Positions 14,162-34,218 of a stretch of 64,000 nt of DNA are shown here, piece after piece. Source of the DNA: Candidatus Borrarchaeum weybense. Its GTDB lineage: Archaea; Asgardarchaeota; Sifarchaeia; Borrarchaeales; Borrarchaeaceae. The stretch covers positions 884,727 to 948,726 of the forward strand of contig JAHQJS010000004.1 of NCBI GenBank assembly GCA_019057385.1, given 5' to 3'. The translations under genes and the position numbers were made by a program. Each line of letters begins with the position of its first letter. Positions within the stretch are counted from its first letter, which is position 1. The notes under the pieces are model-generated. The model did no database searches. It was not told the origin of the DNA and was given only the letters and a program-made list of their open reading frames with translations.

Positions 14162-15553
14162 GTGAACTACCCCACCCTGACGGATGGAGCTTCCTGCGAG
14201 TCCTCCGAACCATATCCACGAATAGGACTGGGTACTTTCGTTTTACCTTTGGCTGTGTGTCGCAGATTATCAAGAAACACTTGATAGCCCGTCCACTTGG
14301 CATTCTGTGATAGGAAACGTTTCATAAGCACCACACAACTATTTTTGTCTCTGGCAATCACGTTACCACACTCACAGTTCATAACTCGTTCCCACAACGG
14401 CATATAATGGAGTTTACCACACATATAACACTCTCTGGAGGTATTGCGTTCGTCAAATTCTATTAGTCTTTTACCTACTCGTTTCGATTTGTAGGTTAGA
14501 AACTGTACGAACCGCCCCAGCGTACCCGTGCTCTGTGTAGCGCGGTTTAACCCCGATCTCATAAAATTTGGCACCTTCGTTGACTGTGCCATGGCTTTGA
14601 CCTGCAGTTCACCCACGATAAGCGTATTCGCCTTGGTGTTGTTCACTACCTTCGTGCTGAGTTTGTGCTGGAAATCCTTTAGTTGATCATCACGTTTCCG
14701 CTCGTACTTGCGTTTGATACGGTTGAAGAACTTCCACTTGTTGCTGAATTTCTTGCACCTATCCCGCCGTGCTTGTATCTTTGCGATTTTTTGATTCCAG
14801 TATTTATCGGGACGCTGGTTGTTCACCACCAAGAATTTCCCCTGAGAATTGACAGCCGTAATGATATGGGTAATTCCCAGATCAATGGCCTGATACCGTC
14901 CGTTATCCATAAAGAGCGGTTCTTCCATCTCGTACGTGATAGTCACAAAATACCGCTTGTTCTGCTCAGAAATGGCGACTTGTTTTACCTTCTTATCATC
15001 AAAAAAGAATTTCGCAGGGATGGCAAACTCCAAAGGTAGATCATTGTAGTTATGGGAAAAGGAGACTTTTCCGTGTTCTAACTTGAACCCCGACTGGTTA
15101 TAAACCATCGTAGTGAAATACTGCTTGCCTTTGAATCGCGGGAGTCTAGCATCGGCGTGTCCATTTTTTCGCAGGGCAAAGAACGACTCATAATCGGCGG
15201 CTAACGTCCTCAAAACATACTGTAAGACCTTCGAATATACCCAGCTATATTCCGGGTAGTGCTTTTTAATTATTGGCAGGTCGTTTTGCTGTTTTCGATA
15301 AGTCACGCCCTTAATGCCGTGTCTATAGGCGTCCCTTCGCTCGGCAAGGGCAAAATTATAGATGAGTCTGCACTTCTCCGAGAGTTTCCAAAGCACTTCT
15401 TCCTGTTCTAGTGTCGGAAAGATCCTAATTTTCTGTGTCAGTCTCATGGGCTTCACGCAGACTCTGGTATCAGTATTTCTACCCCAAAAAACTATATAAA
15501 ACTAGTGGCTTTCATCCCCCCAGCAGTCGGAAGGGGACTTCCCGCTGAACTAA
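14162..15553 (-). mobile_element. IS200/IS605-family (IS1341-like, tnpB-only) element
   Basis: Left end follows TTTAA with a GAAG-TCCCC..GGGGGGA hairpin. Right end GAAGCTCCATCCGTCAGGGTGGGGTAGTTCAC overlaps the tnpB stop. No tnpA. Confidence 0.9.
14167..15456 (-). CDS. tnpB: RNA-guided endonuclease TnpB
   Basis: N-terminal 'KIRIFPT..Q', RuvC-I AIDLG, IVGEL, DERNTS, Zn finger CYMC/CECG and RuvC-III RDKN. Confidence 0.95.
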   Translation of the reverse strand: MKPMRLTQKIRIFPTLEQEEVLWKLSEKCRLIYNFALAERRDAYRHGIKGVTYRKQQNDLPIIKKHYPEYSWVYSKVLQYVLRTLAADYESFFALRKNGHADARLPRFKGKQYFTTMVYNQSGFKLEHGKVSFSHNYNDLPLEFAIPAKFFFDDKKVKQVAISEQNKRYFVTITYEMEEPLFMDNGRYQAIDLGITHIITAVNSQGKFLVVNNQRPDKYWNQKIAKIQARRDRCKKFSNKWKFFNRIKRKYERKRDDQLKDFQHKLSTKVVNNTKANTLIVGELQVKAMAQSTKVPNFMRSGLNRATQSTGTLGRFVQFLTYKSKRVGKRLIEFDERNTSRECYMCGKLHYMPLWERVMNCECGNVIARDKNSCVVLMKRFLSQNAKWTGYQVFLDNLRHTAKGKTKVPSPIRGYGSEDSQEAPSVRVG

Positions 15554-15715: not shown

Positions 15716-16249
15716 TTGATGCATCTGTTATTCAAGATAGTGGTAGTAGGAGATGGAGCCGTAGGAAAAACAACTTTGGCAACTCATTTCGTTAAGGGTA
15801 AATTCATAGAGTATTACAAAATGACTATCGGTGTAGATTTTTTTGTGAAAGACGTTCAAATCGGAGAAGATCTGATCAAACTTCAAATCTGGGACACAGC
15901 TGGTCAAGAAAGGTTTGCCTTTATTCGTCCAACGTATTATTCAGGCACCAGTGGAGGATTCATGGTATTTGATGTAAATCGGAGCGAATCCTTTAAAAGT
16001 CTTGATAAGTGGCTCAAAGAGATTCACACGAATTGTGGAAAGATTCCACTTCTTTTGTTAGGCAATAAAATTGATTTAGATATGCGACAAGTAAAAAAAT
16101 CACAAGCTGAAAAATATGCGAAGAAAAATGATCTCCTATATTACGAAACATCCGCAAAAACAGGTGAACAGGTCTTTGACGTATTTTCTGAATTAGCTAA
16201 CATTTTGTACACCAGATACAAAGTAAAAGTTAAGGATAAGTCAAGTTAA
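15716..16249 (+). CDS. Rab-like small GTPase
   Basis: G1 GDGAVGKT, TIGVDF, G3 WDTAGQERF, G4 NKID and G5 ETSAK; no C-terminal prenylation cysteine. Confidence 0.95.
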   Translation: MMHLLFKIVVVGDGAVGKTTLATHFVKGKFIEYYKMTIGVDFFVKDVQIGEDLIKLQIWDTAGQERFAFIRPTYYSGTSGGFMVFDVNRSESFKSLDKWLKEIHTNCGKIPLLLLGNKIDLDMRQVKKSQAEKYAKKNDLLYYETSAKTGEQVFDVFSELANILYTRYKVKVKDKSS

Positions 16250-16622: not shown

Positions 16623-17378
16623 TTGAAGAGAATACATACTGGAATTAAAGGGCTCGATAATTTAATTGAAGGAGGCATTCCAGAAGGATGGGGTGTTCTT
16701 TTGACAGGCCCTACCGGGACAGGGAAGACAACTCTCGCTATACAATATTTGTATAACGGCTATAAAGACTATAATGAACCAGGAGTATATATCAGTCTAG
16801 AAGAAGATGTTCAGGATATCCTAAAAGTGATGGCTACATTCAATTGGGATTTAAACACTCTGCAAAGGGAAAAAAAACTAGTAATGATTAATGCTATTCC
16901 AAAAAAATCTCCCGATGCGACAGAGTACGTGATTAAAGCTCCTCTATTCTCTCAAACTTTCAGTTTTGAATCAATTTGTTCGTTATTAGAAGAAAAAATC
17001 AATGAAATAAACGCAACCCGCGTTGTTATTGATGGTTTAAGCGCACTAGCGCTTCTATATCAAGATGACTTTAAAATTCGGCAAGGTCTTTTGGATATGA
17101 CAAATACAATTCGCTCCTCAGGTTGCACGACGATTTATACAACAGAGATTCCTGAGGGATCGGTTGGAATCAGCAGATTTGGAGTCGAAGAATTCATTAC
17201 ACACGGTGTAATAATCCTCTATTATGTTCGAGAAGGAGGGAAAAGAACCCGCGCCATAGAGATTCGGAAGATGCGTGGTACCAGGCATGATCAATCATTG
17301 CATCCCTATGAAATTGCAGAAAAAGGAATTGATGTATTTTCCGAAGAAATAGCATTTTTAAGAGATAATTTATTATGA
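16623..17378 (+). CDS. Single-domain KaiC/RAD55-family ATPase
   Basis: TGIKGLD, GPTGTGKT, SLEE, VIDGL and RKMRG motifs. Confidence 0.9.
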   Translation: MKRIHTGIKGLDNLIEGGIPEGWGVLLTGPTGTGKTTLAIQYLYNGYKDYNEPGVYISLEEDVQDILKVMATFNWDLNTLQREKKLVMINAIPKKSPDATEYVIKAPLFSQTFSFESICSLLEEKINEINATRVVIDGLSALALLYQDDFKIRQGLLDMTNTIRSSGCTTIYTTEIPEGSVGISRFGVEEFITHGVIILYYVREGGKRTRAIEIRKMRGTRHDQSLHPYEIAEKGIDVFSEEIAFLRDNLL

Positions 17379-17416
17379 AAAACAATATGCTATAAGAAGA
17401 TATACTCTACAATGTC

Positions 17417-18727
17417 TTGGTGGGATTAATGAAAGAAATATTCCCAGATTATTACAGTGTTTTACTATATGGTCCTCCTGGCGTTGGCAAATCGGAGTAT
17501 ATCTTTGATTTAGTAGAATATTACCTAAAACATAATAAGAAAGTGATTTATATCACCACATCAAAAAGCCCAGAGCAGCTTATCGAATACGCGAAAAAAC
17601 GTAATCTTGATATCACGAAATATGAAAATAAAACACTTGTTTTTATTGACTGTTACTCATGGTCTGTTAGTAAAGAAGAGAAAAGACTCTCAGTTGATCA
17701 TCCAGCAAATCTAAATAAAATAAGCATTAATTTAGTAAAAGCTGTAAATACATTGGGGATGCCAGTTAGAATAATTTTTGATTCATTATCTACACTTTTT
17801 CTTCATAGCCAAGCAGACGTCATTCTGAAGTTTGTTCAAACCATCACATCTCGAATTAAATCAGAATATGGCTTCATCCTTCTTTCAATGCAAAAGGGGA
17901 TGCATAATCAAGAACATGTCACCACAGTGTATTCTATCATGGATGGCGTCATAGAAATGGATTTCGAGGAAGAAACACTCGGAAAACATTTAAGAATTCA
18001 TCATCTAGACGGCTTTCCACATGAATCCATTTGGATACCGTACAAGGTAACCCCTCATGGGACTGAGATAAATCCTGAAAACCTTCAAAAGATTGTTTCT
18101 TATAACGCAAAAACAGCACAACAATCAGCAAGATTCATTAAAAAAGCTGAAAAGTTGCTTTCAGATATTTTTGCGAAAGCTATGGTTGATAATCTTATTA
18201 AATCATATCTTACTAAGTTAGGAATAACACGTGACACTATTGAACAAAATCATGCCAAAAAAATTACGGAAATGATCCACAAAGATATAATTAAGTTTAC
18301 TGGAAAAGATCCTGGCAATTTGGAGAAAGTGTTATTAGGTGATTTTATTAAACGTAAAAAGATTCTTGTTGTAGAAGATAATGAAGATTTTCGAGTTGCC
18401 ATTAAAGAAATCCTAAAACTAAAGGATTATCAAGTTGTTACAGCAGTAAATGGTGTAGAAGCTATAGACTCCGCCGAAAGAGAGCATCCAGATCTGATTT
18501 TAATGGATATTGGTCTCCCTGTGCTTGATGGATATGAAGCCACACGCCGTTTGAAATCTAAGGAAACAACTAAAGATATTCCAATAGTGGCATTAACCTC
18601 ATTTGTTCTCAAAGGGGATGATGAAAAAGCATTAGCTGCTGGATGTGATGGCTATATTCCTAAACCAATCGATATGGGCGGATTTCCACAAAAGGTAGAG
18701 CGTTTTTTCGAAACTGGCGTTCTTTGA
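17417..18727 (+). CDS. KaiC/RAD55-like ATPase fused to a C-terminal receiver (REC) domain
   Basis: GPPGVGKS and IFDSLS in the ATPase; REC motifs ILVVEDN, PDLILMDIGLP, LTS and KP. Confidence 0.85.
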   Translation: MVGLMKEIFPDYYSVLLYGPPGVGKSEYIFDLVEYYLKHNKKVIYITTSKSPEQLIEYAKKRNLDITKYENKTLVFIDCYSWSVSKEEKRLSVDHPANLNKISINLVKAVNTLGMPVRIIFDSLSTLFLHSQADVILKFVQTITSRIKSEYGFILLSMQKGMHNQEHVTTVYSIMDGVIEMDFEEETLGKHLRIHHLDGFPHESIWIPYKVTPHGTEINPENLQKIVSYNAKTAQQSARFIKKAEKLLSDIFAKAMVDNLIKSYLTKLGITRDTIEQNHAKKITEMIHKDIIKFTGKDPGNLEKVLLGDFIKRKKILVVEDNEDFRVAIKEILKLKDYQVVTAVNGVEAIDSAEREHPDLILMDIGLPVLDGYEATRRLKSKETTKDIPIVALTSFVLKGDDEKALAAGCDGYIPKPIDMGGFPQKVERFFETGVL

Positions 18728-18728
18728 G

Positions 18729-18850
18729 TCACTTTTTTCGTCCCTGAGCCTGTCATTCATCCCTGTCTTCGAAGGCGTGGGACCTCTCGGGTTTTGTCTC
18801 ATGCACAAGAACGTGTGCACCGCGTGGTGCGAAGAACATTCCGCCTTGTA
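18729..18850 (-). ncRNA. Structured repeat copy 1 (candidate ncRNA of the RAMP/Cas1 locus)
   Basis: Gapless match to copy 2 (100 of 122 identical by manual count). Covarying stems; TTATAA at 18871-18876. Confidence 0.7.
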
Positions 18851-18930
18851 GTTAAAACATTTGCTGGTTATTATAAGAGTCATGAGCATGATTTCGAGCA
18901 TTCCTATACCTCTAGTATCCGTGTTTCTTT

Positions 18931-19221
18931 TTAAGAGAGTCCACAAAATTTGTTTACGTTATCCACAAATTCTTGATCAAAGGGTTTCTCAATTAACTTC
19001 TTTTTCTTTTGATGCGTAAGTTTTTTTATTTCGCGTTCTCTTTGAATTGCCTGACGTTGGGTTCGGAATTTTTCTACATAGTACAATTTCTTGACTTTGT
19101 ATCTTTTAAGATATCTGGCGCCTTTCCCATCTAAATGGAGTTTGAGGCGCTCGAAGATATCTTTAGTATAACCTGTGTAGAACGTTTTATTTTTACAGAG
19201 AATTACGTAGACGTAAAACAC
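18931..19221 (-). CDS. GIY-YIG nuclease (UPF0213-like), about 96 aa
   Basis: FYVYVILC...FYTGYT.D...RL..H..GKGARY...E. A GTG start at 19221 follows a GGTGA RBS; the longer ORF-track start reads through repeat copy 2. Confidence 0.88.
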   Translation of the reverse strand: MFYVYVILCKNKTFYTGYTKDIFERLKLHLDGKGARYLKRYKVKKLYYVEKFRTQRQAIQREREIKKLTHQKKKKLIEKPFDQEFVDNVNKFCGLS

Positions 19222-19228
19222 TGGGGTA

Positions 19229-19350
19229 TCACCTTTTTCGTCCTTATACCTGTCATTCTTAGCCATCATCTGAGGCGTGGGACCTCTCAGGTTTAGTCTC
19301 ATGCGCAAGAACGTGTTTTCCGCGTAGTGCGAAAAACATTCCGTCTTGTA
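19229..19350 (-). ncRNA. Structured repeat copy 2
   Basis: Offset exactly 500 bp from copy 1; TTATAA at 19371-19376, the same spacing as in copy 1. Confidence 0.7.
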
Positions 19351-19426
19351 ACCTGTATAGCAGTTAGTGATTATAAAATGTGATATCATATCCCTCTGCA
19401 TTATTTTGACCTCGATTTAAATATCT

Positions 19427-20236
19427 CTAAATACTTGCTAAATCGTTTATGTAAAGATTAACCATTAAGAGTAAGTGATTTTTCAGCGAGGAAAAGCCAT
19501 AACTGAGAGCCTCATTAATTTTCTGCAATTCTTGAGACTTACGAATATAGGTATAAAGTGCAAAGAGAGAATGTTGCCGCTTCTCAATGTCACTCACTAG
19601 CGCTTGAAAATCAATTTTTTCTATTTCCGAAATGCGATAGCGTGATGTCGCTTTCCAACGAAATTTTCGAGATATACTGGAAGACAACCTGTCATAATAT
19701 TGGAGAGTTGACAATAAAGGTACCTCTGTGTCATCAATCTCGTAGTTATGATGATTTTCAACTAATTGATGGATATATTCATCACTGATAGAAACCTCAT
19801 TATAGATTTTGCTGTTATGTCTCTCGGTATGGACGAAATCATGTAGAAGCATGGCAATCAGGAGTTTTTGTTGTGTGTCTGAGAGTTTAGGGAGCATTTT
19901 TCTGATGGTGATTTTTCTCGAGACGAAGAGAGGCTTCTTGTGGAGTTTTTTCACTTCTTTCCATTGTATGCGTCCCATGCCTTCATGGGTATAGCGTCCG
20001 AGGCGATCCAGAGAGATTGCAGTTTCAAGTTTATGTTCTGGAACAATAAACTCGATATTACCATACCAAGCCCTGAAGGTCATAGGTGCCCGTCTTTCGC
20101 CTTTTGTAAGTTTACCGAAGGCTCTAGGTCGCCCATGAATTGTTATAACTCCCAGACCAGTAATTCCAAATCTTCTTCGCTTAGAAACTACAGGCGTTTT
20201 CGTTATTCCTGTTAATTTAACCCAGTTTTTTACCAT
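19427..20236 (-). CDS. Minimal RAMP (Cas5-like) domain fused to a Cas10-type permuted HD nuclease
   Basis: N-terminal strand 'KLTGITKTPV' and G-rich loop LGRYTHEGMGRI, then LLHDF..H, HH, YDRLSS and a C-terminal SLKNHL. Confidence 0.75.
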   Translation of the reverse strand: MVKNWVKLTGITKTPVVSKRRRFGITGLGVITIHGRPRAFGKLTKGERRAPMTFRAWYGNIEFIVPEHKLETAISLDRLGRYTHEGMGRIQWKEVKKLHKKPLFVSRKITIRKMLPKLSDTQQKLLIAMLLHDFVHTERHNSKIYNEVSISDEYIHQLVENHHNYEIDDTEVPLLSTLQYYDRLSSSISRKFRWKATSRYRISEIEKIDFQALVSDIEKRQHSLFALYTYIRKSQELQKINEALSYGFSSLKNHLLLMVNLYINDLASI

Positions 20237-20258
20237 TTCTAATCCTCTTTATAGTGTT

Positions 20259-20287
20259 TATCCCGTTAAAAATGATATAACGGGATA
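20259..20287. promoter_or_regulatory. Perfect 10-bp inverted repeat TATCCCGTTA-N9-TAACGGGATA
   Basis: Lies between repeat copy 3 and the RBS of the RAMP-HD gene. Could be a terminator, processing hairpin or operator. Confidence 0.55.
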
Positions 20288-20331
20288 TCTAAACGTATCG
20301 GTTTCTTTACCTTTTGTTCGTAAATTGGATA

Positions 20332-20455
20332 TCACTTTTATCGTCCCGTTGCCTGTCATCCGTCCCCATCAGTACTGGAGGCGTGGGACCTCTCAGATGG
20401 TTCAGTCTCATGCGCAAGAACGTGCCACCCGCGATACGCAAGCAGCAGACCATCA
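20332..20455 (-). ncRNA. Structured repeat copy 3 (most divergent)
   Basis: Shares CACGTTCTTGCGCATGAGAC, GAGAGGTCCCACGCCT, ATGACAGG, GGACGA and GTGA; the 5' hairpin has a different sequence but stays paired. Confidence 0.65.
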
Positions 20456-20496
20456 GGGATGAGAAAAAAGAAATAAAATGAAATAGTGCCGATTCC

Positions 20497-21300
20497 TTAA
20501 GCATTTGAAGCCCTTCGGGTATGTAATGAGACTACAGTTTCCCTCCAATCCTCGATGTTATCAAGCGCAATTGACTCAGCTTTAGTTTTTTCAGAGAACT
20601 TATAGATACCATCATTTCGCTCTAACTTTTTCTCAATGTCAACGTTTTGGAGATCAAAGTCCAAAAGTTTAACCTGTCCATAGCCTGCATTCTTACCGCC
20701 ACCAAGAGTTTCGATATAGAGCAATGACTCAATGAGAAATTTAATTTCCTCATCAGTTAATTGTGTCACATCGATAGAGAAGGTGAAGTAGCCGCTGAAA
20801 TAACTTTGTCGAAAATCCTGAATTGGAACGCCATCAAAACTTAAGGCTATCCTTGTTTCGCTGGCGATGTGAACCTTCTGCACCGCTACATTCGTCTCAT
20901 AGTCTTTATGAGAGATTGAGGTAATGGGATCTGCCGAGACAGAGATACGAGACTCTTTGTGAAAACTGCCGAAGATACGTTGTAGCATGCAAGGGGGATC
21001 ACAACTACCCAGTACATGAAATCCCACAGGCATCAATTTCGTACCATCCTTGAGTTCGGTTTTTTCACTGGTATGGCAAACTTCAATCCCACAATCATAC
21101 GCAAGTTTCATAGCTGCATGTCGTAGCATGCCACGCAGACCCTTGATGTAGTACACTTTTGTATTGAAGACCTTATCTCCGTTTACATAAGGAATTTCGC
21201 CGAGAAGTAACATCGTAGAATTCTTTTGGATAGAGGCATTTAGAGGCTTGGCAATCGGGGTATAGGCACGAACTACAATCTGTTTTTTAGTGGTTTTCAT
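20497..21300 (-). CDS. cas7: Cas7-group (Csm3-like) RAMP protein
   Basis: 'IVVRAYTPI', 'IKGLRGMLRH', Cys/His cluster with 'C..RIFGS', 'ETRIAL' thumb and G-rich loop LGGGKNAGYGQV. Confidence 0.85.
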   Translation of the reverse strand: MKTTKKQIVVRAYTPIAKPLNASIQKNSTMLLLGEIPYVNGDKVFNTKVYYIKGLRGMLRHAAMKLAYDCGIEVCHTSEKTELKDGTKLMPVGFHVLGSCDPPCMLQRIFGSFHKESRISVSADPITSISHKDYETNVAVQKVHIASETRIALSFDGVPIQDFRQSYFSGYFTFSIDVTQLTDEEIKFLIESLLYIETLGGGKNAGYGQVKLLDFDLQNVDIEKKLERNDGIYKFSEKTKAESIALDNIEDWRETVVSLHTRRASNA

Positions 21301-21345
21301 TTCTCTAACCTCGTTGATTTTTCAAATATACTTTTTGCAACCAGA

Positions 21346-21365
21346 TATATAAACCTATCGCTTTC
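21346..21365 (-). promoter_or_regulatory. Putative BRE/TATA promoter of cas7
   Basis: Minus strand AAAGCGATAGG-TTTATATA, about 45 nt upstream of the ATG. Confidence 0.5.
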
Positions 21366-21625
21366 TATACCTTTTATTAGTATAATGGAGAATTAAATTA
21401 ACTCCTTTTAAAATTTAAAGGATTTTATCGGCTTTATTTAATAACGTTGAGTTATGACGCCAAAAATGACCGTTCATTCAACTTGCTATCATTAAGAATA
21501 ATTATTCAATAAAACAAAGATATTATCCTTTTAGTAAAAACAAGCATTTTGTAAAGGTTCATAAGTTAAAAATTAATGGTCTAAATTAATTTATGTTAAA
21601 AAATTGCATAATCATCATATATATT

Positions 21626-24600
21626 TTAGGTTAAGAGTCGAGTCATAGGCACAGGGGGCCCCTTGCCTATCGATTTACAAAATCGCTCGATGCTTCGGAA
21701 CATCTCAAAGATCTCCTGAAACTGTCCCTCATCTGATAAATAGACAAAGGGGATAAATGGAGTTTCGTTTAACAAAAATCCGGCAAGATAACTGGCACAA
21801 CGATTCATAGCTTTCCTTAAAGTCATATAATTGCGATCATAATAGACGACCTCATCCATCAGTTCTTGAAACAATAACCACATCTTTTCCTCAGCACTTT
21901 CTTTTAATGTATACACTTCTTCGCCACGGGGAGTGTAAGATAACTTGAAATCATCCTTGGTGATATCCCCCTTTTTACATGCTTTTACATAAGCGTACCT
22001 GAACATGGGAAGGAACATTTCACGGAAATCAAGCACCGCACCAATAGAGATTTTTTGTCCTGCAGCTCTCCGATAATGGAGTACAAGTTCACCCGGAAAC
22101 CACGAAAAACCGACATCCCATAACACCTTTTGACATTTTTTCAATAGTTGTCTCTTTAGGGCATTAATTCCTGCACTAAAGGGAGAACGCCCTTTGGCTT
22201 CTCCCATAAATAGCGAGGACGCTACATAACGATCATAGGTACGACTGCGGCATTGCATCGCAGTATCTTCTAAGATGAGTTTCCACACCTGCCAAACCAA
22301 TCGCTCTCCATCTGCTTCATAACTGAGTAAGTTTTCTCGACTACCCGTCCAGTGGATAACTGTATGGGCGACAACGTTCATTTGACCTGCGAATAGCCTA
22401 TTTACATCCGCAGATTCTAACATACCATCCTTTTCAGCTTGCAGTGTAAGGAGTGCATTGCTTGCTCGTTTGCTCATATCTATTTGCCATGCCAATAATA
22501 GGCCATCTTCCTTTTCCCTGATGAAGTCAGCTCTTGCCTTTAATTTCTCAGTTAAATTCTCATCTTGAGAGATCTTATATCCTTCAAACGGGACACGAAT
22601 TGAGTCGTCTCGCTCCTCGCCATACACAATTCGTCCTTTAAGTTTTATACGCATAAATTCGGAAAGACCTACATCGCCTATTACTTTTATCCGCTCTATA
22701 GCATCCAACCGATGGCTACGTGAAAAGCCTTCCTTCGATATATAATGAAGCATATGTCGATTAATCGTGAGTTCATCCCCTTCCCTCACAGTCAGCCATA
22801 CATATTGTCGTTGAAGCTCACCCTCTGTCTTTGCAACCACTTTCACAGGTTTAATAGACCTTTTTAAGATGATCTCAAGTGCCTCTTGAAGAAGATCTTT
22901 CGTTCCTGGCTCGACCTTAATCCTACCATCATGAAGCAAAAAATACAGCGAATTACACTGAGGACATAGTGTGTACTGAGCATATGACATCGGTTCCTTT
23001 AATACTGCCTTTTTACAGATGCGACAGATTGGAGTTCCTTGTGTTGTTCGTTCAAAATCCCTAAAAGTCCTGCTTTTTCTTTTTCGAGAGGAATTATGAA
23101 ATCGACAGGCAGCGGTACAGAGCGTGATATCGGTAGTCATGGCACGGTGTCCAAGCAGTCTATTATATTCTGCTGATAATTCACATAAAAATCGTTGATC
23201 CACTCGTTCCTTTTCATAGTCATTTGGACAGGGCATTCTAAAGACACAGGAACCACAGGTTTTTAACATATGTTCTGGAATAGCGGTTTCTTCGCTACAT
23301 ATTCGTTTCACAGGACGTCCCACACCCTTCCCTCTCGGAAAACGTACCACTTTCCCTTGTACGTCTAAGTCGAGCACATTCCAAATAACTGTGGTAAGAC
23401 CGACTGAGTGTTCATAGTGAGCAGAGATCCGTTTATGAAGGTCTTCATAGGTAGTGATTGTTCCGTCCTTTAGTGTCGAACTAATAACGTCTTGGATAGT
23501 TTTGTGTGGTGATGGTTTTTTTTGAGGGTAAAATCGCACTTTTGATCCCCGTTCGAGTTCACTTTTTGTTGTAAGTAACTCACAGATGTGCTCTGCAGCG
23601 TCAACCAGTAATGGATTCTCCATTGTTACAAAGGCATGAACCGCCTCAGCGATCCAGGCTGCGGTTCTTCTGCTTTCTTCGGCATCTCCTAGCCACATAT
23701 TCACCTCATTTGCCGCTGTTTCGAGCTCGTAATCCTCGATTAAAGCTTTTATAAAATAGGTGTAATGTTTGGTGCTATACTTTCCATTGATGTTGTAAAC
23801 AGTCTCTGCGATTATGTCAGTAATCGCCCAATAGGCAGCTTCATTCATGGAAAATCGCTGTTCCTGAAAATAACAGCGTATATTGTTTCCAACAACCGCT
23901 GGCAGTAGGAACTGGCTTGCCCACCTTCCGATAGTCGTCGCTTTATATTTGCCACCCTTCTGTTCTACCAATTTACAGGATATGAGTTCGCGGAGATACA
24001 ATTTCACATCATTTTTTAACTGCTTCTCATATCGCTCAAGTTCTTCAATTTTATGCTCTTTTAAAAGATCGAGAAAAAACAAAATGGGTTTCCTTAGCTT
24101 GATGGAATCCTCATAGTGTTTCAGAATACGATCATAAACACAGTCAAAAAATCCAATTACAAACTGTTTATACTGCTCGATTTCTAGATCGTCGTAGTTG
24201 TCATTATCGTTCAAAAGCGAAAGAAGTTTGTTACTGTTCCGTTTGGAAACCTTAAAACTTTGATGCTGATACAGTTCGGTCTTGATTACTTCTGTATACT
24301 TCCTGATCAGTGCTTTGTGCTCGTAATACATGTAAAATCGTTGCAGATGCCTGATGAGCACACCACTAGACACAGCACCGCGTGACACTCTATACAGAAT
24401 AATATCCTTTAAATTGTGCTTTGAATGGCTCCTCAAACGTTCTTCCTCGAACTCTATTCCTTTTTCAGTGATTTTGATCCTTTTTTCTCCATAAAATGTT
24501 TCTATGCCGCTTTTAATGATCAGGTTGGCATATCCGATTTCGTAAAATTCTGGTCGTGCCGTCCTACCAACCATTGATTCCAAATCCTGTGGACTATAAA

Positions 24601-25597
24601 TCGTCGCATCGGCATCGGCGATAATCACCCGTAACACCGGAGCACTGATCCCCTCTTTATATTCAGTTGTAAAAAGCACGTTAATTTTGCCTTCTTGAAA
24701 GGCTGTCATCCGTTTTTGTCGTTCAACAGCACTTAACCCAGCATGACTGAAGGAAACTGTAATATCAATTCCCTCTTCCTCGAATTTGCAACTCAATTCA
24801 GCAGCCCTAAGCTCTGCCTTTTTCCTTGAGGCACAGAACACCAGTACACATCTTATATCAGTCTGTTGGGTACTCACTTCCATCGCGTATGTACCCTTAA
24901 CTAATTGTGCAATGACGTACATTTGTTCATCGTCATCGGAGACCTTGATAATAGGTTCAATCACAATTTCTGAATGACGTTCATCAGTCTCAATGATCTC
25001 AGCCCCAAGCCAGTCTGCTACCTCACCAATATCCTTGACCATCGCAGTCAGGTAAAGTATTTGAGGTCGGGATCGCAACCACGATTGCGTTTTGACGATA
25101 ACATCCTCCAAACGACTCCCACGCTGCATTTTGCCTACGTAATGCATCTCATCAATAACAACAAGCCCTAATTTTCTCAATAATGAGTATTCATAATTCC
25201 TCATTAACATGCCGTTAAAGGATTCAAAGGTAGTAACAATGATTTCCGCCTTCTTTAATACACGATGGGGTGGCTTCTCCTCTCCCGTCACTTTGACGAT
25301 GCGATACTTTCTGCGGTAGCGTGGCAGGCTGTCAAACCATGCCACAAGACGGTTGTAGGTCTGATCGATCAGCCGTCGATTCGGCACCAAAAACACGCAT
25401 CTTTGTTTTATCCCGAGTATAAAAGTGGCACATATAAGGGGGATGAGTGTCTTACCTGCGCCGGTTGGGGCTTTCACCAGCACATCCTTTTCTTTAATAA
25501 AGGCGGCAATAGCCTTCTCCTGAAATTCAAAGAGTTGTTGATATCCTGCCCGCTTGAGTCGTTCCCATACCGAATACCAATCCATGATGCGTGGCAT
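21626..25597 (-). CDS. Hel308/Ski2-like SF2 helicase + wHTH + Zn fingers + divergent Cas1 (aCas1-like) fusion
   Basis: Q motif FEFQ, APTGAGKT, DEMH, SHAGLS and GRTARP; winged helix; CGSC, CRIC and CPQC. The C-terminal ~390 aa has the Cas1 pattern LLSYE..., VLH..., LDFREMF..., IT.DDF, TLR.AM...A..LA.FL....F.PF. Confidence 0.8.
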   Translation of the reverse strand: MPRIMDWYSVWERLKRAGYQQLFEFQEKAIAAFIKEKDVLVKAPTGAGKTLIPLICATFILGIKQRCVFLVPNRRLIDQTYNRLVAWFDSLPRYRRKYRIVKVTGEEKPPHRVLKKAEIIVTTFESFNGMLMRNYEYSLLRKLGLVVIDEMHYVGKMQRGSRLEDVIVKTQSWLRSRPQILYLTAMVKDIGEVADWLGAEIIETDERHSEIVIEPIIKVSDDDEQMYVIAQLVKGTYAMEVSTQQTDIRCVLVFCASRKKAELRAAELSCKFEEEGIDITVSFSHAGLSAVERQKRMTAFQEGKINVLFTTEYKEGISAPVLRVIIADADATIYSPQDLESMVGRTARPEFYEIGYANLIIKSGIETFYGEKRIKITEKGIEFEEERLRSHSKHNLKDIILYRVSRGAVSSGVLIRHLQRFYMYYEHKALIRKYTEVIKTELYQHQSFKVSKRNSNKLLSLLNDNDNYDDLEIEQYKQFVIGFFDCVYDRILKHYEDSIKLRKPILFFLDLLKEHKIEELERYEKQLKNDVKLYLRELISCKLVEQKGGKYKATTIGRWASQFLLPAVVGNNIRCYFQEQRFSMNEAAYWAITDIIAETVYNINGKYSTKHYTYFIKALIEDYELETAANEVNMWLGDAEESRRTAAWIAEAVHAFVTMENPLLVDAAEHICELLTTKSELERGSKVRFYPQKKPSPHKTIQDVISSTLKDGTITTYEDLHKRISAHYEHSVGLTTVIWNVLDLDVQGKVVRFPRGKGVGRPVKRICSEETAIPEHMLKTCGSCVFRMPCPNDYEKERVDQRFLCELSAEYNRLLGHRAMTTDITLCTAACRFHNSSRKRKSRTFRDFERTTQGTPICRICKKAVLKEPMSYAQYTLCPQCNSLYFLLHDGRIKVEPGTKDLLQEALEIILKRSIKPVKVVAKTEGELQRQYVWLTVREGDELTINRHMLHYISKEGFSRSHRLDAIERIKVIGDVGLSEFMRIKLKGRIVYGEERDDSIRVPFEGYKISQDENLTEKLKARADFIREKEDGLLLAWQIDMSKRASNALLTLQAEKDGMLESADVNRLFAGQMNVVAHTVIHWTGSRENLLSYEADGERLVWQVWKLILEDTAMQCRSRTYDRYVASSLFMGEAKGRSPFSAGINALKRQLLKKCQKVLWDVGFSWFPGELVLHYRRAAGQKISIGAVLDFREMFLPMFRYAYVKACKKGDITKDDFKLSYTPRGEEVYTLKESAEEKMWLLFQELMDEVVYYDRNYMTLRKAMNRCASYLAGFLLNETPFIPFVYLSDEGQFQEIFEMFRSIERFCKSIGKGPPVPMTRLLT

Positions 25598-25719
25598 ACA
25601 CCATCAATAGTAAAACTTAGAAATTTGCTTATAAAGAAGGTAAGAGGAGCTGACAGCAACCTTTTTTCCACTTAAAGGTTTATGTAATTAGAAATCCATG
25701 TAGATGGTAAGAATTATTT

Positions 25720-27678
25720 TTGTTACTTAGGAAGGTGGGGCTTATGGGACAGAAGTTTGTGACGGTTCATGGCAAGAAATATTATGTTAAGGGTGGTAAG
25801 CTAGACTTTCGTAATTGGGCACTTAAGAATATCGCCAAAATTGAAGGGTTAGAAAATCTTACCAACCTTAGGGAGTTATACCTTTATAGTATTCATTTAG
25901 AATCGATTGAAGGTCTAGGCAATCTCACAGAACTTGAAAAATTAAGTCTTGGCGGCAATAGAATAAGAGAAATTAAGGGATTAAGAAATCTTACTAACCT
26001 CCAAGAACTCGACCTTAGTGGGAATAAGATAGAGGTGATCAAGGGACTGGAAAACCTCACTAAACTTCAGGTACTAAATCTTTATAACAATGGGATACGG
26101 GAAATCAAGGGATTAGATCAACTCACCAAACTCCAAGAACTCAACCTTGGTAGGAATTATATAAGGGAAATCGAAGGATTGGATCTCTTCTCAAACCTCC
26201 GCATACTGGATCTAAGTAGTAATTGTTTTACAGTATTCAAGGGAAGCGTGCGTCACGGTACATATTGTATTTCCGAAATCCAGGGGCTGGAAAATTTGAA
26301 AAACCTACATACGCTGAATCTTGCAAAAAATCAGATCAAGGAAATCACCGGTTTGGAAACGCTCACAAACCTCACAAACTTCGATCTGAGTCATAATCAA
26401 ATTACCGAGATCAAGGGATTGGAGAACCTTACCAAGCTCCAAGTACTCAATCTGTATGGGAATCAGATAGATGAATTCAAAGGTCTTGAGCACCTTACAA
26501 GGCTCAAAGAACTTGATCTTAATTGGAATCCAATAAGGGCTGGAGAAAGACATTTACTAAAAGCAAATGCAAAGAAAGTGGTAAAATATTGTCAAGACAA
26601 AAAGGCCGACAAGTTCCCGAGTGTAGAAGTCAAGGGAAGAACATTTCCTATACTAACCGAGGTTATGGATCTCAGAAATTTGAAGATTACCGATATTGCA
26701 GAGATTAAAGGATTGGAGGCGTTTACTAAAGTCACCGTGTTAGACCTTAGGGGCAATCAAATAACAGCTATTAGTAACCTACATCATCTTACCCAACTTC
26801 AAAAACTGAATCTTAGTGGGAACATGATCACCGAAATTAACGGTCTAGAACAACTTACCAAGCTCAAAGAATTACATATTTCGAATAACCAAATAAATGA
26901 GATCAAAGGCTTAGAGACACTCACTGGACTCCAAAAATTAAACCTCAGTGGCAATCAAATAGAAGAAATCAGTAACTTAGAGCCTCTTGCAAATCTCCAG
27001 GAACTAAATCTTGAGAGAAATCAGATTAAGACGATTAAGCAACTGGAACAACTCACCACCCTCAAAACATTAAACCTCAAGAAAAATCAAATACAGGAAA
27101 TTGAAGGACTAGATAGCCTTGTAAATCTCACCACACTCGAGCTTGAGTGGAATCAAATCAGCGAGATTAAAGGACTGGATAATCTTGTAAATCTCATCAA
27201 ACTTGATCTTGAAGAGAATCCGATCACCGAGATTAAAGGACTGGATAACCTTAAAAGTCTTAAGAACGTCTACATTACTATAGACCTTATAAGAGATGAT
27301 GAATGGGACATAGTTTGCAGTAAAGATGCACAGGTTGTTGTGAGATACTGCCAAAGAAAAACGAGAATGGAAAAGGGGGAAGATGAACTGGAAGATGAAC
27401 TGGAAGATAAACTGGATGAAGGAAGATTTGAATCGGCATTTGATACTTGGCGACACGAAAGAGATTTGGAAAGGTATTTTGATATTAATCTTCATGCAAG
27501 TGATTTTGATATTGATGAGGATTGGGAGATGTATAAATTAGATGAGGGTATTTCGATAGGACTAGTATATTTTATGGAAGACATATTCCGAGAAGAACTG
27601 CGTGGTAATAGGCTTTCACAACACGAACTAATTGAGAAAATAAATGAGTGGCTTAGACCATATTTAACTACAGAGTAG
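25720..27678 (+). CDS. SDS22-like leucine-rich repeat protein with two LRR modules and an acidic C-terminal domain
   Basis: 22-aa repeats LxxLxLxxNxIxEIKGLxx. The likely start is ATG 25744 (MGQKFV) after a GGTGG RBS. Confidence 0.92.
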   Translation: MLLRKVGLMGQKFVTVHGKKYYVKGGKLDFRNWALKNIAKIEGLENLTNLRELYLYSIHLESIEGLGNLTELEKLSLGGNRIREIKGLRNLTNLQELDLSGNKIEVIKGLENLTKLQVLNLYNNGIREIKGLDQLTKLQELNLGRNYIREIEGLDLFSNLRILDLSSNCFTVFKGSVRHGTYCISEIQGLENLKNLHTLNLAKNQIKEITGLETLTNLTNFDLSHNQITEIKGLENLTKLQVLNLYGNQIDEFKGLEHLTRLKELDLNWNPIRAGERHLLKANAKKVVKYCQDKKADKFPSVEVKGRTFPILTEVMDLRNLKITDIAEIKGLEAFTKVTVLDLRGNQITAISNLHHLTQLQKLNLSGNMITEINGLEQLTKLKELHISNNQINEIKGLETLTGLQKLNLSGNQIEEISNLEPLANLQELNLERNQIKTIKQLEQLTTLKTLNLKKNQIQEIEGLDSLVNLTTLELEWNQISEIKGLDNLVNLIKLDLEENPITEIKGLDNLKSLKNVYITIDLIRDDEWDIVCSKDAQVVVRYCQRKTRMEKGEDELEDELEDKLDEGRFESAFDTWRHERDLERYFDINLHASDFDIDEDWEMYKLDEGISIGLVYFMEDIFREELRGNRLSQHELIEKINEWLRPYLTTE

Positions 27679-27831
27679 GGAGTTTCCTTGAGGTGATTTT
27701 AGAAAACTTGAGAGAGATCGCAGATTCAATAGCTACATAATCTCAAGTAAATAATACAAAGCGTTTCGAACATTCAATCCAGTAACTGCACTATAAGGAA
27801 TCAATTTTTCCTCTTCAACAGAGGCTATGAA

Positions 27832-27897
27832 GATGCCCAAGAGATTGTAAAATACTGTCAAGAAAAGGCTCGAAAGGTAAAACAAGAAGGCGGTTGA
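27832..27897 (+). pseudogene. Orphan 3' end of an LRR gene (DAQEIVKYCQEKARKVKQEGG*)
   Basis: Matches the C-terminus of the next LRR gene (DAKKVVRYCQEKANKAKEGG*). Confidence 0.75.
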
Positions 27898-27919
27898 GGG
27901 AAACAGAGGGAGTTAAAGG

Positions 27920-30343
27920 ATGGGAAAAGAGGAGTTTGTGACGGTTAATGGCAAGAAATATTACATCATAGAGAACAACTATACAAAGCGTCTAACCTTA
28001 GATCTTAACCATGCCAAAATTTCTGATTTTAAGGATGTTAAGGGATTAGATACTTTGACGGACTTACAAGTTCTGATCCTTGATCACAATCTGCTAAGAC
28101 AAATCGAGGGGGTAGATGCTCTCGCTAATCTAGAAGATTTAGTCCTCTCACACAACAAAATTACAGAGATAACGGGATTAGAGACCCTCACCAATCTCAA
28201 AGCATTAGATCTTAGATATAATCAGATCATAGAGATCAAGGGGTTGGAGAATCTAAAGGACCTCTATTATCTTAACCTTGACGGCAATCAGATCACAGAG
28301 ATTAAGGGATTGGAGACCCTCACCAATCTTCGTGAACTACATCTAGGATATGTTGATATTTTTGAAAGGCTTTCACGGAGATTATATGAAGCATATGGTG
28401 GAGATTTAGAAGAGTTTAAAGAAGAGAAGCATCGCAATCGTATAAGAGAGATCAAGGGATTGGAGAGCCTCACTAACCTTAAACTACTAGATCTACGTGG
28501 CAATAAGATAACAGATCTCAAGGGACTGGAAAATCTTACAAATCTGGAAGAAGTATTTCTTGAAGACAATCCGTTACAAGCTGCAGATCAGATTAAATAT
28601 AGCAGGGATAGGTATTACACGTCGTCGATTGTGGAATATTGTCAAAAGAAAAAAGAGGGTAAAATCCCCTTTGTAACAATTAAAGAAATAAAATATTATG
28701 TGTATGAAGCGGAATTGGGAGAAGCCTTATACCTTAGCGAGTTAGGAATTACCGATACCGCCGAAATTGAAGGATTAGAAGCACTTACTCAACTTATAAA
28801 CCTCAATCTATCCTCAAATCAAATCACCGAAATTAAAGGACTAGAGAATCTTTCTAATCTGGAAGAACTAAACCTTGAGAACAATCCGTTACGAGAGAAT
28901 GAGAAACATCTGATAGATCAAAGTGCTCAGGTAATTGTAAAATACTGTAGGGACAAAAAGGAGGGTAAACTGAAATATGTGACAGTTGGAGAAAAGCAAT
29001 ATCAGGCTAGCAACGACATACTCGACCTTAGCGATCAAGGTATCACTGATATAACTGAAATTAAGGGTTTAGAATTCCATTTTAGTCTAAGGAAACTATT
29101 TCTTAATAATAATAACATAAAAGAGATTAAAGGCTTAGAGAAACTCTCTTCTCTACAGGAATTACATCTCAGTAATAATCAAATCAAAGAGCTCAAAGGA
29201 CTCAAGAATAATACACTTCTCGAAACATTAAATCTTAATGGGAACCAGATAGAAGATCTCAGTGAATTAGAGCATCTTAAAAACCTAAGAGAATTATTTC
29301 TTAATAACAATCACATAAAAGAGATTAAAGGTTTAGAGAACCTTCATAATATACATAAATTAGATCTTCGCAACAACCAGATACAAGAACTTAAAGGATT
29401 GGAAAACATTTCTAATTTAGTAGATCTGTTCCTCGAAGACAACCAGATACAAGAGATCAAAGAGTTGGACAACCTTATTCATCTTAAAGAGCTTCATCTA
29501 GCAAGAAATCTCATAAAAGAGATTACAGGGCTAGTAAAACTTACTAATTTAACAAACCTTAATCTTAGTTATAATCAAATTGAAGAACTTAGGGGCCTTG
29601 AAACGCTTACTCATCTCAAAGAATTATACCTTGAAGGGAATCCGATAAGAGAATGGTCTATGGCATTTATGAAAGTGTTTGATGGAGATAAAGAAACGTG
29701 GTATACGCGAGATGTGCAAGATATCGTAAATTATTGTAAAGATAAGAAAGGGGGCAAAATACCTTTTGTTACAGTCAAAGGAAAAAGGTATCATGCTTAC
29801 GATGACGATCGAACTGAATACTACTATCATCATTTCATCTTAGATGACCTCGGCAACAAATTAGAACCTCAACTTAGATTAAACCTTAGCGGGTTAGGAA
29901 TTATTGATATTAAAGAGATTAAGGGCCTAAAAGATCTTAAAAACCTCCAAGTATTAGATCTCAGTCAGAACAAGATCAAGGAAATCGCCAGGCTGGGATC
30001 CCTTGAAAATCTCGCGATCTTACATCTTGAAGAAAATATGATCACAGAAACCAAAGGGTTGAAACCTCTAAAAAATCTCCAAGAACTCTATCTCAACAAT
30101 AATCAGATACTTGAGATCAAAGATGTGGAGTCTTTCAAAAACCTCTATTTGCTAAATCTTGAGAATAATCAAATAACAGAGGTAAAAGGTTTGGAGGCGT
30201 TAATTAACCTTGAGGAACTTAGACTTGAAGGAAATCCACTAGAAGTCGATGAACGACAGTTTATTTATATTGGCAGAACTGACGCAAAAAAAGTTGTGAG
30301 GTACTGCCAAGAAAAAGCTAACAAGGCAAAGGAAGGCGGGTGA
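27920..30343 (+). CDS. SDS22-like LRR protein with four capped LRR modules
   Basis: Repeated N-cap FVTV.GKKY, 22-aa LRRs and C-cap NP....A..IV.YC..KK. Confidence 0.92.
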   Translation: MGKEEFVTVNGKKYYIIENNYTKRLTLDLNHAKISDFKDVKGLDTLTDLQVLILDHNLLRQIEGVDALANLEDLVLSHNKITEITGLETLTNLKALDLRYNQIIEIKGLENLKDLYYLNLDGNQITEIKGLETLTNLRELHLGYVDIFERLSRRLYEAYGGDLEEFKEEKHRNRIREIKGLESLTNLKLLDLRGNKITDLKGLENLTNLEEVFLEDNPLQAADQIKYSRDRYYTSSIVEYCQKKKEGKIPFVTIKEIKYYVYEAELGEALYLSELGITDTAEIEGLEALTQLINLNLSSNQITEIKGLENLSNLEELNLENNPLRENEKHLIDQSAQVIVKYCRDKKEGKLKYVTVGEKQYQASNDILDLSDQGITDITEIKGLEFHFSLRKLFLNNNNIKEIKGLEKLSSLQELHLSNNQIKELKGLKNNTLLETLNLNGNQIEDLSELEHLKNLRELFLNNNHIKEIKGLENLHNIHKLDLRNNQIQELKGLENISNLVDLFLEDNQIQEIKELDNLIHLKELHLARNLIKEITGLVKLTNLTNLNLSYNQIEELRGLETLTHLKELYLEGNPIREWSMAFMKVFDGDKETWYTRDVQDIVNYCKDKKGGKIPFVTVKGKRYHAYDDDRTEYYYHHFILDDLGNKLEPQLRLNLSGLGIIDIKEIKGLKDLKNLQVLDLSQNKIKEIARLGSLENLAILHLEENMITETKGLKPLKNLQELYLNNNQILEIKDVESFKNLYLLNLENNQITEVKGLEALINLEELRLEGNPLEVDERQFIYIGRTDAKKVVRYCQEKANKAKEGG

Positions 30344-30366
30344 AGGCAATAAAGGAGTGGGTGGAT

Positions 30367-30521
30367 GGGAATCAGAGGGAGTTAAAGGATGGAAGAAGAG
30401 GAGATAGTAACAGTTAGAATAGTTCAGCCCATATGTTCTATTCTTATTAGCCAGAAAAGTAGAGGAAAAAACGATGACAAATGATTTTGTAACGTTTAGA
30501 GGCAAGAAATATTATGTTAAA
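30367..30521 (+). pseudogene. Two orphan 5' ends of LRR genes
   Basis: Duplicated leader CAGAGGGAGTTAAAGG-ATG with MEEEEIVTVR at 30389, and MTNDFVTFRGKKYYVK at 30474. Neither is followed by LRRs. Confidence 0.7.
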
Positions 30522-30836
30522 ATATTATGTTTTCCTCTTAATTTCTCATCTGATTCCAAGTAAATAAGTTAGTATTTGATGTAAACCAAGATTAGAAATA
30601 TGGATGAAAGTTTTTTTGAATTACCAAAGATGTTAAGATAGCTTATGAAATAAATACGTATCTATTTTGTTTTTTACAAGTGTTAGATTGAATTTATTGT
30701 CTGAAAATAAAAATATACATATAATTTTCACATTTTAATGTACTGTAATGAACAATTAATACGTAGCAATTCTTATATTAACGAAATCTTATCAAAGTCA
30801 CGTTTGTTTTACAAAAAGAATAAAAAAAATCTATAG

Positions 30837-33120: not shown

Positions 33121-34146
33121 TTATAATCCAATCCCATCAATTTTTGAATTACATTTATAACATAGATTGTTTTTAATCTCATTTTTTGTATAGTAAAACC
33201 CCCGTCTTTGAATGAGTAGTTCGCCACAATTATAACAGTACGTATTCTCCCCCCGTCCAACATTTCCCATGTACACATATTTTAAACCTGCCTCTTGTCC
33301 AATCTTTTGTGCCCTTTCTAATGTACTTACTGGAGTTGGCGGTTTGTCAGTGAGTTTATATGTTGGACGAAAAGCCGAGACGTGCCAAGGTGTTTCTTCC
33401 CCGACTTCATCACGAATAAATACTGCAATTTGTCTTAATTCATCATCTGAGTCATTCAAATCTGGAATTATTAAGGTAGTTATTTCAACCCATATGCCAA
33501 GCTCTTTATGAAGTCTAATTGAGTCCAATACGGGCTGTAGTTTTGCCCCACAAATTTCTTTATAAAAAAGGTCGGTCATCGCTTTTAGATCAATATTTGC
33601 GGCGTCTAAATATGGAGCAATCTCATGCAACGCTTCTTTTGAAATATATCCGTTTGTTACGAAGATATTTTTGATTCCTTCTTTCGTAGCTAACTTTGCA
33701 ATGTCATAGGCGTATTCAAAAAATATTGTCGGTTCAGTGTAGGTATATGCAATACTTTTACATTTATTTCGTTTTGCATCAGCAACAACTTTCTCTGGAG
33801 GAATATCCATCCCTGTGATACGCTTCTTATCTTTTGGCATTTGAGAAATATCATAATTTTGACAGTGTTTGCATCTAAAATTACATCCTGGAGTAGCGAT
33901 CGAATAAGCAGTGGAGCCGGGATAAAAATGGAATAATGGCTTCTTTTCAATCGGATCCACAGCACGAGAAACAAGTTGCCCATATACCAAAGTATAAAGT
34001 GTCCCTTGGTTATTTTCTCTAACCGTGCATATTCCTCGTTTAGCATCTTTAATCATACAGTAATGATTACAAAGAGTACAACGTACTGTTGAATTATCCA
34101 ATTTTTCGTACATCATAGCTTCTTTCATTTTTTCCGCCAATTTCAA
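33121..34146 (-). CDS. amrS: AmmeMemoRadiSam-system radical SAM enzyme
   Basis: CTLCNHYC, DPIEKKPLFHFYPG, CNFRCKHCQN and YTYTEP motifs. Confidence 0.9.
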   Translation of the reverse strand: MKLAEKMKEAMMYEKLDNSTVRCTLCNHYCMIKDAKRGICTVRENNQGTLYTLVYGQLVSRAVDPIEKKPLFHFYPGSTAYSIATPGCNFRCKHCQNYDISQMPKDKKRITGMDIPPEKVVADAKRNKCKSIAYTYTEPTIFFEYAYDIAKLATKEGIKNIFVTNGYISKEALHEIAPYLDAANIDLKAMTDLFYKEICGAKLQPVLDSIRLHKELGIWVEITTLIIPDLNDSDDELRQIAVFIRDEVGEETPWHVSAFRPTYKLTDKPPTPVSTLERAQKIGQEAGLKYVYMGNVGRGENTYCYNCGELLIQRRGFYYTKNEIKNNLCYKCNSKIDGIGL

Positions 34147-34218
34147 ACTTAACTTGATTTAATACTATATTACCATTAGATTTATAACTCAACTGGCAAG
34201 AAGACTCCTCCATGCTTT

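Follow-up and report, generated by a model that had tools for sequence, protein, structure and literature searches.

The stretch of DNA analysed here, hereafter the window, comprises 64,000 nucleotides (nt) of contig JAHQJS010000004.1 (positions 884,727 to 948,726) of Candidatus Borrarchaeum weybense, and encodes actin and small GTPases of its Borrarchaeum-like Asgard host. Its central feature is a gene (21626..25597) that encodes, in 1323 aa without internal stops, a Hel308-like helicase, a winged helix-turn-helix (wHTH) domain, two cysteine clusters and a Cas1 domain. It is followed by a gene for a Cas7-like RAMP protein, a structured 123-nt RNA element (RNA1), a gene for a Cas5-like RAMP protein fused to an HD domain (Cas5-HD) and a second copy of the RNA element (RNA2). 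Together with two leucine-rich repeat (LRR) cargo genes, these features constitute an inserted element of 11.3 kb (~19222..30529). All features lie on the reverse strand unless the plus strand is stated. A preliminary description of the fusion gene had not mentioned cas7, cas5-HD or the RNA.

The helicase-Cas1 fusion protein

The helicase occupies residues 1 to ~680 (23558..25597) and comprises two RecA domains, a winged helix and a ratchet domain. It is recognized by the Pfam models DEAD (8.7e-26) and Helicase_C (2e-11) and by a Hel308 model (1.5e-28), and the predicted structure of residues 1-700 (pLDDT 85) matches Hjm/Hel308 (2zj8, 2p6r) with TM scores of 0.63-0.66 over ~750 columns (757 at 0.66). 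As the match extends over full-length Hel308, all four core domains of that family are present, beyond the RecA pair, in keeping with the Hel308-like assignment made earlier. The resemblance is one of whole fold at 17% identity, and the protein differs from Hel308/Hjm in its fusion to a wHTH, Zn clusters and Cas1. The wHTH and Cys clusters previously noted between the helicase and Cas1 were also recovered. The former is an additional winged-helix domain at about residues 698-775 (23273..23506), with a model match at Z ~10 and VIA Z scores of ~9-10 to many wHTH domains; the latter are two four-Cys sets (22955..23257; Cys 781/784/805/831 and 858/861/878/881) whose eight residues are invariant in nine copies and which probably bind Zn.

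The Cas1 domain spans about residues 930-1290 (21728..22810). The family model TIGR00287 detects it weakly (E 1.2e-8 on residues 930-1323; 34 bits against a curated cut-off of 72 bits), and a search of the PDB with the single fusion sequence returned no Cas1 match; it was a profile of 30 relatives that found Cas1, namely A. fulgidus Cas1 (4n06, 7e-19) and a casposase (6opm, 1e-16). The predicted structure of residues 690-1323 (pLDDT 84.7) matches 4n06 (Foldseek E 1.6e-11; VIA Z 25.8, root-mean-square deviation 6.1, 286 residues aligned) and 6opm (VIA Z 25.0, deviation 3.8, 272 aligned), and the match to 4n06 covers model residues 241-599, that is, both the N-terminal beta domain and the helical catalytic domain. 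The Cas1 fold proposed in the preliminary description is thus found in the predicted structure and by profile alike. The same profile aligns E1094 (22316-22318), H1174 (22076-22078), D1190 (22028-22030) and E1193 (22019-22021) with the E, H and D-x-x-E motifs of 4n06 and 6opm; all four residues are invariant in 9/9 full-length copies (33-64% identity), which bears out an active site earlier described as intact-looking. Judging from the fold and alignment, the E/H/E residues are expected to cluster in space. In the Cas1 N-x-x-Y motif, Lys1148 stands in place of the Tyr, a change shared with a 64%-identical relative from the related genome G004.

The preliminary description had further suggested a weakened or repurposed motor. 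Motifs Q, I and II and both motif VI arginines (R345, R348) are intact. Motif VI reads S-x-x-G-R-T-A-R, with Ser341 (24575-24577) in place of a Gln that 7/9 close copies and no fewer than 90% of 21 relatives retain; the Ser occurs only in this protein and the 64%-identical relative, and the change is therefore old and tolerated. Most close relatives have a motif V longer by one residue. In Ski2-like helicases, the motif VI Gln positions the attacking water (bioRxiv 10.1101/758169), so hydrolysis could be slower in the Ser341 copy, and a lower ATPase rate is possible by analogy. Compared with the congener ortholog, residues 1-288 show a dN/dS (ratio of nonsynonymous to synonymous substitution rates) of 0.05, motifs V and VI lying outside this comparison, which indicates strong purifying selection on a helicase that is maintained rather than decaying; the values for the wHTH-Zn part and the Cas1 domain are 0.18 and 0.078, respectively. 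The divergence of motif V and the loss of the motif VI Gln were described correctly for this copy; a weakening is possible but not established, given the key motifs kept and the low dN/dS. The host retains other Ski2-like helicases.

The fusion of helicase and Cas1-type integrase is genuine, and the gene is intact. Six copies exist in the genome, one of them frameshifted, each followed by cas7 and cas5-HD, and such fusions form a wider family than the copies of this genome. In other Asgard lineages, Cas1 and the helicase are encoded by adjacent genes beside cas7/cas5-HD or TnpB; the occurrence of aCas1 beside TnpB has been reported there (PMC10691335). The frameshifted paralog (host genome G000, C4:417430-421468) is split near residue 560 into frames of 567 and 781 aa.

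The inserted element, its RNA and its empty sites

The element lacks an equivalent in a congener (G002, contig C121), where host sequence jumps from the position corresponding to window 30530 to that of 19220. The insertion point is the start codon of a host GIY-YIG gene (18931..19221; 96 aa from GTG; Pfam GIY-YIG 3e-15), whose start is ATG at the empty site; no target duplication is seen at this junction. Both LRR genes (Pfam LRR; plus strand, 25720..27678 and 27920..30343) lie inside the element, the first being absent at the empty site. A call of a 156-aa GIY-YIG open reading frame (ORF) is an artefact, since it includes RNA2. The GIY-YIG gene was considered as cargo and rejected, as it is present at the empty site and is instead the insertion target. 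G004 was likewise discarded as an empty site because its locus is an internally deleted remnant of the element; G003 holds the RNA2-GIY-YIG junction.

The cas7 gene (20497..21300; 267 aa) matches Pfam RAMPs at 4e-9 and, weakly, type III/IV Cas7 models; the genome contains 11 cas7 copies. Cas5-HD (19427..20236; 269 aa) combines a Gly-rich loop (G80/G86/G88) with HD residues (H132-D133, H140, H162-H163, D182, H254), all invariant in 23 relatives. The name Cas5 is inferred, because no family model matches this copy, one relative matching cas5_csf3 at E 0.011; searches of the ESM Atlas and profile searches of the PDB with Cas5-HD gave no match. A Cas5-HD 67% identical to it is assigned to Ca. Borrarchaeum sp.

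The 123-nt RNA element occurs three times at this locus. RNA1 (20330..20456) lies after cas7 and is followed by a tail of ~40 nt and a hairpin (20259-20287); RNA2 (19227..19347) lies after cas5-HD at the downstream end of the element; and RNA3 (18727..18847), after the GIY-YIG gene, is a separate solo insertion (~18721-18928) at the stop codon of a convergent gene encoding a KaiC-like ATPase with a receiver domain. RNA3 is absent in G002 and G004, and the same empty form is seen at loose ends in run X4. An interpretation of the three RNAs as an integron-like array was rejected by the empty site. About 25 copies exist in the genome, and the element is present in 5/5 relatives of the same class, while its model found no match in 135 other Asgard genomes searched. 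In one of these relatives (G005, a 2-Mb assembly), at least 25 more diverged copies occur, and no helicase-Cas1 match was found in it.

Comparison of 48 copies supports a folded RNA: 94% of cells pair, against 36-53% in slid controls, and 98 two-sided changes were counted versus 35 in shuffles, although kinship among the copies inflates such counts. The first hairpin covaries strongly, and a hairpin loop covaries with the RNA 3' end (G-C in 25 copies, C-G in 19), forming a pseudoknot. No Rfam family matches the RNA, and in a comparison by eye, made with no formal test, it was unlike TPP, twister, pistol, HDV and group II domain V.

Empty sites were also identified for the copies on C3 (6.9 kb), C5 (10.6 kb) and C4:339k (10.3 kb). 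Conversely, the window itself (~34100-34200) is the empty site of another helicase-Cas1 element (L056), whose insertion duplicated ~60 bp at the start of a radical SAM gene. Filled and empty alleles were compared in 16 cases, and in most of them 6-8 nt separate the RNA 3' motif from the return of host DNA, a return that frequently coincides exactly with a start codon or with the stop codon of a convergent gene. At RNA2, host DNA resumes 7 nt after the conserved 3' GTGA, which also resembles a Shine-Dalgarno sequence for the GIY-YIG gene. At L036, L046, L066, L068, L072 and window 19221, the terminal RNA copy ends in GTGA 7 nt ahead of a host start codon, thereby offering the host gene a ribosome-binding-like signal, and many others end at convergent stop codons. 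One junction is thus fixed relative to the RNA tail, and insertions are absent at the same site in congeners; on these insertions, the fusion gene is always accompanied by cas7, cas5-HD and the RNA.

The opposite end is far less regular. Nothing is conserved among the upstream ends of seven elements, target duplications range from none to ~130 bp, and comparison of the two ends of this element remained at shuffle level, yielding no terminal inverted repeats. The earlier idea that the wHTH and Cys clusters might recognize element ends therefore holds in part: the gene does lie on an insertion, but terminal inverted repeats are absent and the RNA element is the only conserved end. No excision joint or circle appeared in the DNA runs, which were surveyed as contigs only and so give no evidence of absence. 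Across the genome, LRR genes show no clear enrichment near the RNA (2/8).

RNA tails and the mode of insertion

The presence of cas7, cas5-HD and a folded RNA on an insertion appears to point to an RNA-guided jumping element rather than an immune system. With a probability of roughly 0.55, the locus is read as an RNA-guided mobile element of Borrarchaeum-type Asgard archaea in which helicase-Cas1 would be the mobilising enzyme. The empty sites, the regular distance between RNA and host DNA, the covarying RNA structure, the intact Cas1 residues under selection and the pairing of the same Cas1 with a helicase and with cas7/cas5-HD or TnpB in other Asgard lineages support this reading. Further support comes from sister elements, in which the RNA lies internally and carries a tail of 30-45 nt with a shared layout of linker, match and hairpin. 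Of five internal tails, four agree with the junction sequence of the empty allele (29, 25, 27 and 28 of 30 nt), while the chance level for a 30-nt tail has a mean of ~14.5 and, one self-hit excepted, a maximum of 19-20. For C3 and C4:339k, the first matched base marks the upstream junction exactly. The L034 tail agrees with its site on the opposite strand (27/28 for the empty allele and 20/22 for the filled one, which differs at the tail's 5' part); such an antisense tail cannot be produced by simple read-out. At L029, three RNAs stand in tandem, and two of their tails match distant loci, namely the RNase P RNA gene at its 5' edge (35/41) and 16S rRNA (42/46).

RNA1 tails form a separate group. 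The tail at this locus resembles the promoter-like region upstream of cas7 (21339..21389; 35/44 nt alike), and in 11/11 loci the RNA1 tail scores best against a cas7 upstream region of its own clade, with its own locus first or tied in 9/11. This likeness may reflect self-repression or an old promoter duplication. CRISPR systems are known to regulate themselves through guides that match a promoter.

Several observations weigh against a guided element. The RNA2 tail at this locus is the host gene itself and therefore gives no evidence of guidance here; the C5 tail is weak on the empty allele (18/30 ungapped) and better on the filled flank (32/38); and same-strand internal tails could be host DNA left over after a second insertion. 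The element has no PAM-like motif, terminal repeats or fixed duplication, unlike casposases, and many RNA and cas7/cas5-HD units lack a helicase-Cas1 gene. Protein identity among copies is 33-49%, so no very recent jump is seen, and this copy combines three unusual changes (Ser341, the short motif V and Lys1148). Nevertheless, the antisense tail at L034, the tandem RNAs at L029 and the consistent tail layout appear to keep guides ahead of leftovers as the explanation of the tails.

An improbable alternative is a Cas1 transposon without guidance, for which the 123-nt element would be the downstream end, recognised as DNA or RNA, the tails would be flanking DNA by chance, and insertions at gene borders would survive since the host gene is spared. 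Tails that are contiguous host DNA, here and at many loci, accord with this proposal, as do the start codons 7 nt after GTGA in six host genes and the many ends at convergent stops, which a survival bias predicts; solo RNA copies also look like miniature elements. However, one-sided changes of the G-U type and the pseudoknot favour an RNA, and the L034 antisense match, the L029 tandem units, the internal-tail hairpins and the clade-matched RNA1 tails would each need extra events. Cas7 and Cas5 would also be left without a role.

A second alternative retains the guide and dispenses with joining by Cas1. Cas7/Cas5-HD would cut the empty allele, and host recombination or end-joining would copy the element in, leaving helicase-Cas1 a separate job such as creating new RNA-tail junctions (guide writing) or processing breaks; TnpB-assisted retention offers a parallel. 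The variable duplications and recoded gene ends at junctions do resemble recombination, the HD residues are invariant, and units lacking helicase-Cas1 are numerous. Even so, this homing model is considered rather unlikely: the junction is base-precise at the first matched tail base in C3 and C4:339k, selection on Cas1 is strong, and units that lack the gene could be mobilised in trans.

For the RNA-guided mobile element, a mechanism can be outlined from the comparative data. The RNA, once expressed, would serve as a scaffold bound by Cas7/Cas5-HD, and its tail of 30-45 nt would pair with the target; the tail would be read out into flanking host DNA at the present locus, in the manner of a TnpB omega-RNA, or, as in sister elements, held within the element together with a terminator hairpin. 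The Cas1 domain would then connect the end marked by the RNA with the target's 5' edge through strand transfer, the fused 3'-5' helicase would unwind donor or target, and the wHTH and Zn clusters may bind the ends. The other end would be resolved imprecisely, leading to variable upstream ends, variable cargo and duplications of 0 to ~130 bp. RNA1, as a second RNA aimed at the cas7 promoter, would probably bring about self-repression. The fullest form of this proposal is that a minimal class 1 effector (Cas7, Cas5-HD) and a non-CRISPR scaffold RNA direct a single-chain helicase-Cas1 in programmable integration, placing multi-kb DNA at the edge of a guide match and gaining new guides by capture of flanking DNA; it is offered tentatively, at less than even odds. 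If Cas1 does perform the joining, a Cas1 enzyme would be inserting DNA under RNA guidance; the system would then connect casposons with CRISPR-Cas and offer a compact candidate tool for writing genomes.

Finally, the locus could be a derived defence or regulatory system riding on islands, in line with the published view of ARAMP (Asgard RAMP), with helicase-Cas1 capturing or degrading foreign DNA. Summaries of ARAMP/HRAMP present them as probable defence systems with nucleases (PMC8730458, PMC12669027), and an HD nuclease with a Cas3-like role for the helicase is plausible. This explanation is very improbable, since every placeable tail matches a host insertion site, a host RNA gene or the element's own promoter, presence at orthologous sites is patchy, and the unit has neither array nor cas2 while the host has a separate complete CRISPR locus.

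Known systems and additional loci

The protein set alone belongs to a known kind (ARAMP, aCas1). ARAMPs are summarised as array-less CRISPR derivatives of enigmatic mechanism, and they share with this locus an Asgard host, diverged Cas7 and Cas5 with a nuclease, a distinct Cas1 and the lack of a CRISPR array; these summaries mention neither an RNA nor empty sites (PMC8730458, PMC12669027). No description of the RNA, the junction rule or the empty sites was found in the literature searched, which did not cover the original 2020 ARAMP paper. ARAMP with aCas1 is reportedly described at source by Makarova et al. (2020, CRISPR J), where the helicase fusion is likely to be depicted already. The defined RNA, junctions and predicted targets make the ARAMP mechanism directly testable with three proteins and one RNA.

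In IS200/IS605 elements, the TnpB omega-RNA extends over the downstream end, contains a 3' pseudoknot and derives its guide from the DNA next to the element. The 123-nt RNA resembles it in its position at the downstream end, its pseudoknot and the guide source proposed here, but the proteins are unrelated, Rfam shows no sequence match and a variable linker of 6-8 nt precedes the host match. CRISPR-associated transposons (CAST, Tn7-like) likewise combine class 1 effector proteins with short guides to the insertion site, as proposed for this element. They differ in that the integrase here is Cas1 instead of TnsB, with no TnsC/TniQ, CRISPR repeat or Cas6, and in that the junction lies at the target edge and not ~49 bp away; no TnsB/TnsC/TniQ or CRISPR array is found among the ORFs of the element.

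Casposons (PMC9939771; 6opm) are mobile elements that likewise encode a Cas1-fold integrase whose catalytic residues are intact. The present element is distinguished from them by the lack of PolB (every long ORF of 19222-30529 belongs to some other family), of terminal inverted repeats and of a fixed short duplication, and by its N-terminally fused helicase, RAMP genes and RNA. In aCas1-TnpB loci (groups Cas1H-Asgard-1/-2), Asgard Cas1, which has been proposed as a transposase, adjoins an RNA-guided module, and a guide-like variable region lies downstream (Altae-Tran et al. 2023, PMC10691335). Here, the module is instead a class 1 one (Cas7, Cas5-HD) with its own 123-nt scaffold and no flanking repeats.

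An ordinary CRISPR locus is present in the host (G000 C4:148433-160000), with 49 repeats, cas6, cas1, cas2, cas4 and type I-like genes. Its array, the sole one found, lies ~750 kb away, and its spacers match none of the element loci. A search for related loci in genome and metagenome contigs returned nothing. In a distant Asgard archaeon (G028), a 66-nt repeat with copies 83% alike (L142:13974-14039 and 16131-16196) flanks cas7 and cas5-HD, with aCas1 and a helicase as neighbours; although unrelated to the 123-nt RNA, it may be an analogous RNA.

The L029 element (L029:1298-3016, G004 C9) contains four RNAs and lies on a 29-kb contig with a primase-like gene and no synteny to G000. At L075:6568-14197 (G000 C5), the matches to the 16S and 23S models extend over 2.67 kb and 4.8 kb, respectively; both rRNA genes therefore carry large insertions, one with a 265-aa ORF, which are probably introns with homing endonucleases. 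Within the window, KaiC-like ATPases are encoded in tandem (16623-18727), the second fused to a response-regulator receiver domain. No tnpB lies inside the element; an IS605-type tnpB (14167-15456) is located beyond its junctions, with no adjacent tnpA in view, and many similar copies occur in G004.

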